IMG/VR virus record: IMGVR_UViG_3300037424_001256
Span: 1-64,000 of that record
Direction: 5' to 3' (one strand)
DNA: 64,000 nt
DNA from: a virus
Taxonomy: Duplodnaviria; Caudoviricetes
Below, one piece after another: positions 9,924-11,763 of the stretch. The notes beneath the pieces are model-generated. The model was not told where the DNA came from, searched no databases, and worked only from the letters and a program-made list of their open reading frames with translations. Made by a program: the position numbers and the translations under genes. The number at the start of each line of letters is the position of its first letter. The stretch's first letter is position 1.

Positions 9924-11015
9924 TTATTTGACAAATAAATGGGATTTGTCTAATATTTCTGTCTTAATATGCGTGGCTATATACTTCATAAGAGTTGGTG
10001 GTACTGCCCTACCGATTCTTTCCCAATTTTGAGCAGGACTATGGATCAATTGAAAGTCATCCGGGAAAGATTGAATTCTCTTCGCCTCGTTAATGCTCAT
10101 TACCCTGTCAATCCGAGGATGAAATGGTCTAGTATGATGTTGCTTGATCGTGTAGTAAGGTTCGTCCCATTTGTCTCTCCTGAATCCTTGAGTGTAATAC
10201 TTGAAATTGTTCTCTTGCATTATTCTCTTGATGTCATTGTTGGTGCATCCAGCATGAAAATATTGTTCCATTAGGCGAACTCTTTTGTGGATATCGCACT
10301 TTAAGTCAGTGCCATCATACATTAGATCTTCAATAGCTTCACGGCAAGTAATTTTGGCATTGGTCGATGGTTCTGGAAAACTTGGTAGTATATCAAGATC
10401 CTTTCTAACGCCAATAATGATAGTCCTTTCACGTTTCTGAGGCACATCATAATCAGATGCATCCAAGACTCTGTATTTTACGTTATAGCCTGTCTCCGTG
10501 AGTATTCGCACGATGTCCCCTAAAACCACCAAAGCCTTGCCCATAGTCAGCCCCTTGACGTTTTCGGCAATGAAAACCTTAGGCATCGTCTCCTTAACGA
10601 TTCTTGCATACTCAAAAAATAAGTCATCAACTCTTTGCTTTGTGGATGAATAATTTTTCTCCTTTCCCCATGACTCTTCGCGTGATCCATTGACTGAGAA
10701 CGAAGCACAAGGAGGACTTCCATCAAGGATGTCCAACTCATATTTCTGTAAGCCAATTGAATCTAGGATTTCCTGCCCAGTAGTATCCCTGATATCTTTA
10801 TCTATTACGATTGTTCCCGGATGATTAAGCTTGTAAGTCTGTACGGCATACGAGATAAATTCAGATGCCAATCTAACTTTATATCCAGCAAGTTTATATC
10901 CTAGTGAGCTCCCACCACAACCACTAAATAAGCTCACGACATTGTAACCGTTATGCTTTATCTCATTAATTTCAGTCATATCTAGTTGTGTCTTCATAAT
11001 TTCCCCCCTCATCAT
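9924..11015 (-). CDS. C5 DNA cytosine methyltransferase-family enzyme, probable carboxymethyltransferase
   Basis: FSGCGG (I), GSPPC (IV), ENV (VI), QKRER (VIII); motif X reads IGRAVPP instead of GNAV. Confidence 0.9.
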   Translation of the reverse strand: MMRGEIMKTQLDMTEINEIKHNGYNVVSLFSGCGGSSLGYKLAGYKVRLASEFISYAVQTYKLNHPGTIVIDKDIRDTTGQEILDSIGLQKYELDILDGSPPCASFSVNGSREESWGKEKNYSSTKQRVDDLFFEYARIVKETMPKVFIAENVKGLTMGKALVVLGDIVRILTETGYNVKYRVLDASDYDVPQKRERTIIIGVRKDLDILPSFPEPSTNAKITCREAIEDLMYDGTDLKCDIHKRVRLMEQYFHAGCTNNDIKRIMQENNFKYYTQGFRRDKWDEPYYTIKQHHTRPFHPRIDRVMSINEAKRIQSFPDDFQLIHSPAQNWERIGRAVPPTLMKYIATHIKTEILDKSHLFVK

Positions 11016-11028
11016 AGCTAAATAAGTC

Positions 11029-11763
11029 TTATTTTAGAGCAATATAGCCCTCAAAATTCATCCAGCGCCAGAACACATCTATCTTCTTGAATCCTGCTTG
11101 TTTCAACAGATCCTTATTCCAATTTGAGGTTACAGGAACGAGTACACCTTCTAAGGAAAGTTTCTTACGTTCTATCTGTTCCCGTGTGTAACCGTTCTCT
11201 TCCTTGAGCTTCAAATAAGTATCAACCATGATGTCATTTAGTTCAGCACAATTTCCAAGAACCTTTTCTACCATAATAAAGCCACCACTTGGAATTAAAT
11301 TATCATATATTTCCTGAATTATCTTCTGGCGATATTCAATTGGTGTGAACTGAATAGTAAGTACCGACATAATCAAACCATAACTATCGACTGGAAGTCC
11401 CTTAATAATATTATGATCCATAATTTCAACCTCAGGCATTTTCTCGAATCTCTTTCTAGCTTCCTCTATCATTGGAGCGGATACGTCAATTCCTCTATAG
11501 TTATACGCCTTACCATAAAAATCTACCAATGGCGCAAGTCCTAACCCATTTGAACATCCGATATCTAGTATGGCTGGACGAATATCTGGATACTTAGACC
11601 CTGTATTATCTAGCACTTTAACGCCAAGATCCAATACGGCATTACGCATTACATGATATTGCGGTATTGATCTCTCCAGCATATCTTCGAAACAGCTTGT
11701 GACGTTTTCATCAAACTTCCATTTGGTATCCTGTTCATTTAGATAACCTAACGAACTTTCCAT
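11029..11763 (-). CDS. cmoA: CmoA-like carboxy-SAM synthase / class I SAM-binding protein
   Basis: WKFDENVTSCFEDMLERSIPQY, ILDIGCSNG, IQFTP...RQKIIQEIYDNL, VEKV, AGF..WRWMNF. Confidence 0.8.
   Translation of the reverse strand: MESSLGYLNEQDTKWKFDENVTSCFEDMLERSIPQYHVMRNAVLDLGVKVLDNTGSKYPDIRPAILDIGCSNGLGLAPLVDFYGKAYNYRGIDVSAPMIEEARKRFEKMPEVEIMDHNIIKGLPVDSYGLIMSVLTIQFTPIEYRQKIIQEIYDNLIPSGGFIMVEKVLGNCAELNDIMVDTYLKLKEENGYTREQIERKKLSLEGVLVPVTSNWNKDLLKQAGFKKIDVFWRWMNFEGYIALK

Follow-up and report, generated by a model that had tools for sequence, protein, structure and literature searches.

Enzymatic carboxymethylation of DNA cytosine was described in December 2025 by Yang et al. (Nat Commun 2025; PMC12783734) in Synechococcus phage S-B43, a T4-like myovirus that encodes the carboxy-SAM synthase SpCmoA, the cytosine C5-carboxymethyltransferase SpCmoX, and the amide ligase SpCmoY. 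The structure of SpCmoX with carboxy-S-adenosylmethionine (Cx-SAM; SAM, S-adenosylmethionine) is available as 8YF3, in which R350 contacts the Cx-SAM carboxylate; the wild-type enzyme takes Cx-SAM only, its target specificity is GC, and its product, 5-carboxymethylcytosine (5cxmC), blocks HhaI (PMC12783734). Yang et al. took the SPPC motif and R350 as the criteria for CmoX and counted 5,615 candidates in IMG/VR, UniProt, and MGnify (PMC12783734). Here, we analyzed a window of 64 kb, the first part of an IMG/VR virus record of 88,032 bp (IMGVR_UViG_3300037424_001256) that is rated complete by CheckV. On its minus strand, from 9924 to 11946, this window carries homologs of cmoA and cmoX together with a small open reading frame (ORF), ORF59, and we consider it very likely that this mobile CmoA–CmoX cassette lets the phage write 5cxmC into its DNA.

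In the proposed mechanism, CmoA would convert SAM and host prephenate to carboxy-SAM, Cys103 of CmoX would attack C6 of cytosine, and the carboxymethyl group of Cx-SAM would be transferred to C5, while R336, which replaces the Asn of motif X, would hold the Cx-SAM carboxylate. The CmoA step follows the mechanism described in PMC10491745 and PMC3663124. With no CmoY-type amide ligase to act on it, the free carboxylate 5cxmC would stay as the mark, and it may shield the phage DNA from host restriction.

The locus resembles S-B43 in having the same two enzymes in the same adjacency, and in keeping SPPC, the Arg, and the Cx-SAM contacts. It differs in that the window phage has no CmoY ligase anywhere in its genome, its host is probably a member of Bacillota rather than a cyanobacterium, and it is an 88-kb siphovirus-like phage, probably a phage-plasmid; its cassette also has its own small upstream ORF and a divergent recognition region. 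In the engineered M.MpeI N374K, the Asn of motif X has been exchanged for a basic residue, which likewise permits the use of Cx-SAM (PMC12783734), but that enzyme is CG-specific and has Lys, whereas the window CmoX has a natural Arg and belongs to a different clade; the M.MpeI structures 4dkj and 8c56 match the window protein at E 4e-7 only. What the original prediction stated on this variant and on CmoA-coupled 5cxmC in a cyanophage agrees with PMC12783734. The CmoA/CmoB pathway for tRNA cmo5U34 in E. coli (b1870/b1871) draws its cofactor from the same family of Cx-SAM synthases, whereas the predicted acceptor here is DNA cytosine, not tRNA ho5U, and the phage CmoA falls below the equivalog cut-off. 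As in orphan phage C5-methyltransferases, the gene is a solitary one that occupies an accessory position in a temperate phage and has no cognate endonuclease (none lies beside it in the cassette, which consists of ORF59, cmoA, and cmoX only), but it differs from them by the Arg in place of the motif X Asn and by the coupled CmoA.

The transferase matches PF00145 over profile positions 1–323 of 324 (Pfam, E 3.6e-67), and its top match among all PDB sequences is 8YF3 (216 bits, E 4.7e-63), followed by M.HaeIII (106 bits), in which the aligned motif reads IGNAVP. The original prediction had reported a cmoA-like gene immediately upstream of a C5-methyltransferase with motif X reading IGRAVPP. Both ORFs lie exactly where it placed them, the upstream product has a full-length CmoA match, and the AGG codon of the motif X Arg, here in the context WERIGRAVPP, agrees base for base with the prediction on the minus strand. 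In the alignment to 8YF3, R336 pairs with R350 of SpCmoX and S100–C103 pairs with S95–C98 of SPPC, and thus the transferase has both features by which Yang et al. recognize CmoX; F30, E52, F53, and D74 fall on F25, E47, F48, and D69, which contact the adenine and ribose of the cofactor. When the transferase was aligned with its 120 best database homologs, down to 40% identity, the motif X Arg and SPPC were invariant in all 121 sequences, and the columns of F30, E52, F53, and D74 were kept in at least 119 of them. An AlphaFold (AF2) model of the transferase from 25 homologs had a predicted local distance difference test score (pLDDT) of 88.7, and Foldseek with this model again returned 8YF3 first (E 5.6e-30; template modeling scores, TM, 0.75/0.81). 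The identity to SpCmoX is 38% overall and 49–56% in the catalytic core. Because the recognition region (residues 212–300, between motifs VIII and IX) is only 15% identical, the GC specificity of SpCmoX cannot be assumed for this CmoX. The closest database homologs are 85% identical for CmoX and 81% for CmoA, as well as 83% for the neighboring ORF354; a single-protein pattern search of IMG/VR found no close relatives.

The cmoA product matches TIGR00740 over its full length (13–244 on 13–239, E 1e-38) and phrog_4752 at 213 bits, and its PDB matches include 1im8 (E 3e-25) and E. coli CmoA, 4gek (E 3e-22). We compared its residues with those of E. coli CmoA (NC_000913), SpCmoA (MN018232), and 120 homologs. 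The protein retains E. coli Y39, D62, G64, S66, D89, F137, and K198 (the retained contacts being Y36, D67, G69, S71, D93, and F139 in its own numbering), and deviates from the E. coli enzyme at four positions, D117N, N132V, N90V, and R199K. SpCmoA, to which it is 28% identical, also deviates in all four columns, with N, L, L, and E, respectively, so the two phage proteins have the same pattern of active-site substitution. The original prediction had noted a Lys at the column of E. coli R199, and K201 does align there. R199 of E. coli CmoA makes a salt bridge to the Cx-SAM carboxylate (PMC3663124), while SpCmoA, which has a Glu in this column, reaches a kcat of 2.33 per s and works ten times as fast as E. 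coli CmoA (PMC12783734). The Lys is therefore a weak caveat and would give no ground to doubt CmoA activity, Arg199 apparently not being strictly required in phage enzymes; among the 120 nearest homologs the column holds R in 80, K in 33, Q in 6, and A in 1.

The coupling of the two genes extends well beyond this phage. An IMG/VR alignment query returned 80 loci encoding CmoX relatives with 41–49% identity; a SpCmoA-like gene lies near the CmoX relative in 71 of them and a SpCmoY-like ligase in 23, so that pairs without a ligase are common. P0058, a protein of 622 amino acids, is a natural fusion of CmoX (residues 7–354, with SPPC and with IGR at 331) and CmoA (387–615), which are 59% and 51% identical to the respective window proteins. 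The metagenome contig L095 carries cmoX–cmoA–cmoX at 2900–5832, with one CmoA gene between two CmoX paralogs; its DNA is 76% identical to window positions 9944–11775, and its backbone shares no other gene with the window phage. At the protein level, the L095 products are 72%, 73%, and 86% identical to the window proteins, and the motif X Arg is present in both paralogs. These paralogs diverge most in the recognition region, where they are 60% and 82% identical to the window CmoX, which suggests two target specificities served by one shared Cx-SAM synthase.

The complete genome encodes no CmoB-like transferase and a single C5-methyltransferase, and CmoX is thus the sole visible user of Cx-SAM. 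These observations bear on the alternative that the transferase is an ordinary orphan enzyme which uses SAM to make 5-methylcytosine, with an unrelated CmoA-like protein acting on a small molecule or tRNA, or depleting SAM against host defenses that depend on SAM. CmoA homologs do occur in natural-product pathways, such as MccS in Bacillus, a side role in SAM depletion was raised by Yang et al. (PMC12783734), and the CmoA homolog does score below the equivalog cut-off. However, the unbroken conservation of the motif X Arg among the aligned sequences, the exclusive use of Cx-SAM by wild-type SpCmoX, the P0058 fusion, which puts both activities in one chain, and the lack of another candidate Cx-SAM user in the genome make this alternative scarcely credible. 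The original prediction that the phage carboxymethylates cytosine is thus supported by the closeness to 8YF3, the R336–R350 equivalence, and the adjacent CmoA, while the protection against restriction that it attached to the modification is a proposed role.

A search of the complete genome with PF00733 (Asn_synthase) gave no match, and tblastn with SpCmoY over the same sequence gave nothing at E ≤ 1; since the genome has no CmoY ligase, free 5cxmC is probably the final product. Alternatively, 5cxmC could be only an intermediate, which an unrecognized enzyme of a type other than CmoY, encoded elsewhere in the genome, would turn into a further hypermodified base. Native S-B43 DNA bears a glycine amide instead of 5cxmC, several ligase clusters have amines that are not known (PMC12783734), and many ORFs of the window phage have no family match. 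This alternative is nevertheless rather unlikely given the two negative searches, the presence of CmoY-like genes at only 23 of the 80 related loci, and the gene content of the 2.1-kb insertion, which brought only ORF59, cmoA, and cmoX next to the backbone gene ORF354. Separately, a ParB_N protein is encoded at 25453–25941, 14 kb from the cassette; ParBc proteins are found on many CmoX contigs and were given no role by Yang et al. (PMC12783734).

In blastn against the sister phage L087, homology runs to window position 9937 and resumes at 12039, with 12 bp between these points in L087. The left junction lies inside the final cmoX codons, and the C-terminal SHLFVK is unlike that of the L095 copy. 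Directly downstream of cmoX lies ORF354 (8778–9842), which has no Pfam, PHROG, or Atlas match; its few homologs lead to eight IMG/VR loci that are syntenic across the repressor, RecE, RecT, ORF190, ORF354, and ORF65, and all eight are without cmoA and cmoX. ORF354 had been a candidate for a new CmoX accessory protein and was rejected on this ground. No PF00145 match was found anywhere in four sister genomes (82–88 kb, ~71% nucleotide identity over ~40% of the genome). Since the sisters keep ORF354 but have no C5-methyltransferase, ORF354 belongs to the backbone and the cassette is accessory cargo. The slot between ORF354 and ORF65 is a cargo hotspot: it is essentially empty in L087, L088, and L089, and in L090 (7212–7868) and L093 it holds a MazE-like antitoxin (84 amino acids) and a Fic/Doc toxin (133 amino acids, PF02661 E 1e-13). 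What is directly observed is thus the homology, the conserved residues, the linkage of the genes, the boundaries of the insertion, and the lack of CmoY.

ORF59 has no Pfam or PHROG match and is absent from the L095 cassette. As a lead, the ESM Atlas feature search scores it 0.94 for “putative DNA-binding protein” and returns one cluster in which 22% of the proteins have RHH_3; our guess would be a ribbon-helix-helix (RHH) regulator or controller of the cassette. Within the cassette (Table 1), 3 nt separate the stop of ORF59 from the ATG of cmoA, which has AAGGAGG in front of it. The spacing from cmoA to cmoX is 13 nt by ORF, or 31 nt when counted from the ATG at 10997. The latter is probably the true cmoX start, yielding 357 amino acids, because it is preceded by a GAGGGGGG ribosome-binding site and the homologs start with MKTQLDM. 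A promoter and terminator scan of 8500–12400 gave no more promoters than expected from shuffled sequence and no terminator.

Table 1. Positions of the cassette and its features in the window
Feature	Position	Strand	Basis or remark
cmoX homolog, predicted DNA cytosine C5-carboxymethyltransferase	9924–11015	-	363-amino-acid ORF; PF00145, 8YF3, Foldseek
cmoA homolog, predicted carboxy-SAM synthase	11029–11763	-	244 amino acids; TIGR00740, phrog_4752, 1im8, 4gek
ORF59, possible DNA-binding (RHH-like) small protein	11767–11946	-	First cassette gene; language-model features
Motif X AGG codon, R336 (SpCmoX R350 in the alignment)	10008–10010	-	Alignment
Codons S100-P101-P102-C103, motif IV and catalytic Cys	10707–10718	-	Aligned with SpCmoX S95–C98
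K201 codon (column of E. coli CmoA R199)	11161–11163	-	Alignment
Inserted cassette ORF59 + cmoA + cmoX, 2.1 kb	9938–12038	-	blastn against sister phage L087
Possible operator upstream of ORF59 (10-nt direct repeat in tandem)	11992–12011	-	Predicted function
Partial inverted copy of the 10-nt repeat	11981–11991	n/a	Next to the tandem repeat

Several points weigh against carboxymethylation by this cassette. The enzymatic activities of both proteins are predictions from sequence. The CmoA homolog scores 133.3 bits with TIGR00740, under the equivalog cut-off of 193.3, and 82.5 with NF011995, whose cut-off is 285; both models are tailored to the bacterial enzyme of the tRNA pathway. K201 stands in place of the carboxylate-binding Arg199 of E. 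coli CmoA. The supply of prephenate and the relevant restriction enzymes hinge on the host, which is placed, as plausible, by family distributions only. Furthermore, the genome still strongly avoids many palindromes that contain C, those with GC among them, with GCATGC at 0 of 10.9 expected, TGCGCA at 0 of 8.5, TGGCCA at 1 of 16.6, and CCWGG at 1 of 100, and AGGCCT, GGATCC, and TCCGGA are likewise almost absent. Such largely undiminished avoidance may reflect either narrow protection or a recent arrival of the cassette. The avoidance and the loss of the salt-bridging Arg (PMC3663124) would also fit a recent and poorly functional passenger, with CmoA crippled by R199K and CmoX starved of cofactor in a host that has no CmoA to supply it. 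We regard this as quite improbable, since neither ORF is disrupted and each has a good ribosome-binding site, Lys is found at this position in more than a quarter of the close homologs and Glu in the highly active SpCmoA, and no other 4-mers are as relaxed in comparison with the sisters as AGCT and GCGC, a weak sign of use.

These 4-mers come from a comparison of the window genome with the four sisters over 136 strand-symmetric 4-mers. AGCT has an observed/expected ratio of 0.99 (sisters 0.76–0.83) and GCGC one of 1.12 (sisters 0–0.98); the relaxation (z 3.5 and 3.3, respectively, uncorrected) is not significant once corrected, and host differences confound the comparison. No target motif was called from the k-mer footprints, as hexamers that contain GC are still avoided and the same confounding applies. 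Site avoidance is widespread among the five phages (G000 and its sisters G001–G004; L099–L118). CCWGG occurs 1–2 times in each of them as compared to 80–113 expected, GGATCC is found at 0 of 22 expected in three of the five, and GCGC is at zero in the 86.7 kb of G001. GGWCC is almost absent from three genomes, while the window genome has 40 of 74 expected. The lineage leans heavily on site avoidance, which shows that restriction is a real pressure, and the differences from sister to sister point to different hosts. On the basis of the HhaI protection shown for SpCmoX and by analogy, the cassette would have an anti-restriction role.

A host in Bacillota and a phage-plasmid lifestyle are plausible. 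The last 24 kb of the genome encode a RepA_N replication initiator (L085:14606–15538, genome 78606–79538) and a ParA-type ATPase (AAA_31; L085:10485–11255, genome 74485–75255), and a Uma2 nuclease and DUF932 are encoded close to them. All relatives found for the RepA_N protein lie on plasmids from Staphylococcus, Enterococcus, lactobacilli, Bacillus, and Planococcus. Family matches also identify a DnaB_2/DnaD-type replication protein and an Amidase_3 lysin, and one CmoA homolog comes from a metagenome-assembled genome of Bacillota. The original prediction of a Firmicute phage accordingly stands as plausible, with the distributions of RepA_N, DnaB_2, and Amidase_3 carrying it by themselves. TIGR00740 had no match in the B. 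subtilis control genome, which fits a phage that supplies its own synthase.

The chemistry, the key Arg, the coupling to CmoA, and the wide spread among phages have already been published, so the window phage opens no new question and adds one more member without a ligase to a known system rather than a new discovery. What sets it apart is where the insertion begins and ends, the Doc genes that take the same slot in sister phages, a complete genome with no ligase, and a recognition domain that has diverged. It adds a probable phage-plasmid of Gram-positive type to the carriers of a modification known so far from one cyanophage experiment and a bioinformatic survey, and in it the two genes are seen to move together, as one small block, into a particular site for accessory genes. 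Such a pair, lacking the ligase and with another recognition domain, would be a convenient minimal system in which to ask how free 5cxmC affects restriction enzymes, and it would widen the sequence specificities available for enzymatic DNA carboxymethylation. When all features are combined, the cassette might be an anti-restriction “moron” that is self-contained, moves horizontally, brings a small regulator of its own, ends at free 5cxmC, and has a target other than the GC type, possibly AGCT and GCGC. It would then be the first carboxymethylation system that has no ligase and a different target in a phage-plasmid of Gram-positive bacteria, hosts that are not known to make Cx-SAM themselves. 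We offer this combined reading tentatively, as it is somewhat more doubtful than probable.

Other genes of the window were observed in passing. A radical SAM protein of 248 amino acids (3937–4683, minus strand) adjoins a serine-recombinase/invertase gene (3237–3824) and is 81–83% conserved in the sisters L087 and L089, which makes it a backbone gene. An ORF resembling homing endonucleases, with HNH_3 and NUMOD1 (22183–22803, minus strand), lies immediately upstream of the gene for the Amidase_3 lysin (22855–23688) and runs on the opposite strand to it. Finally, positions 26178–34737 encode a sugar pathway of the nonulosonic-acid type, with a PseB-like Polysacc_synt_2 dehydratase, two DegT aminotransferases, and two NeuB synthases.

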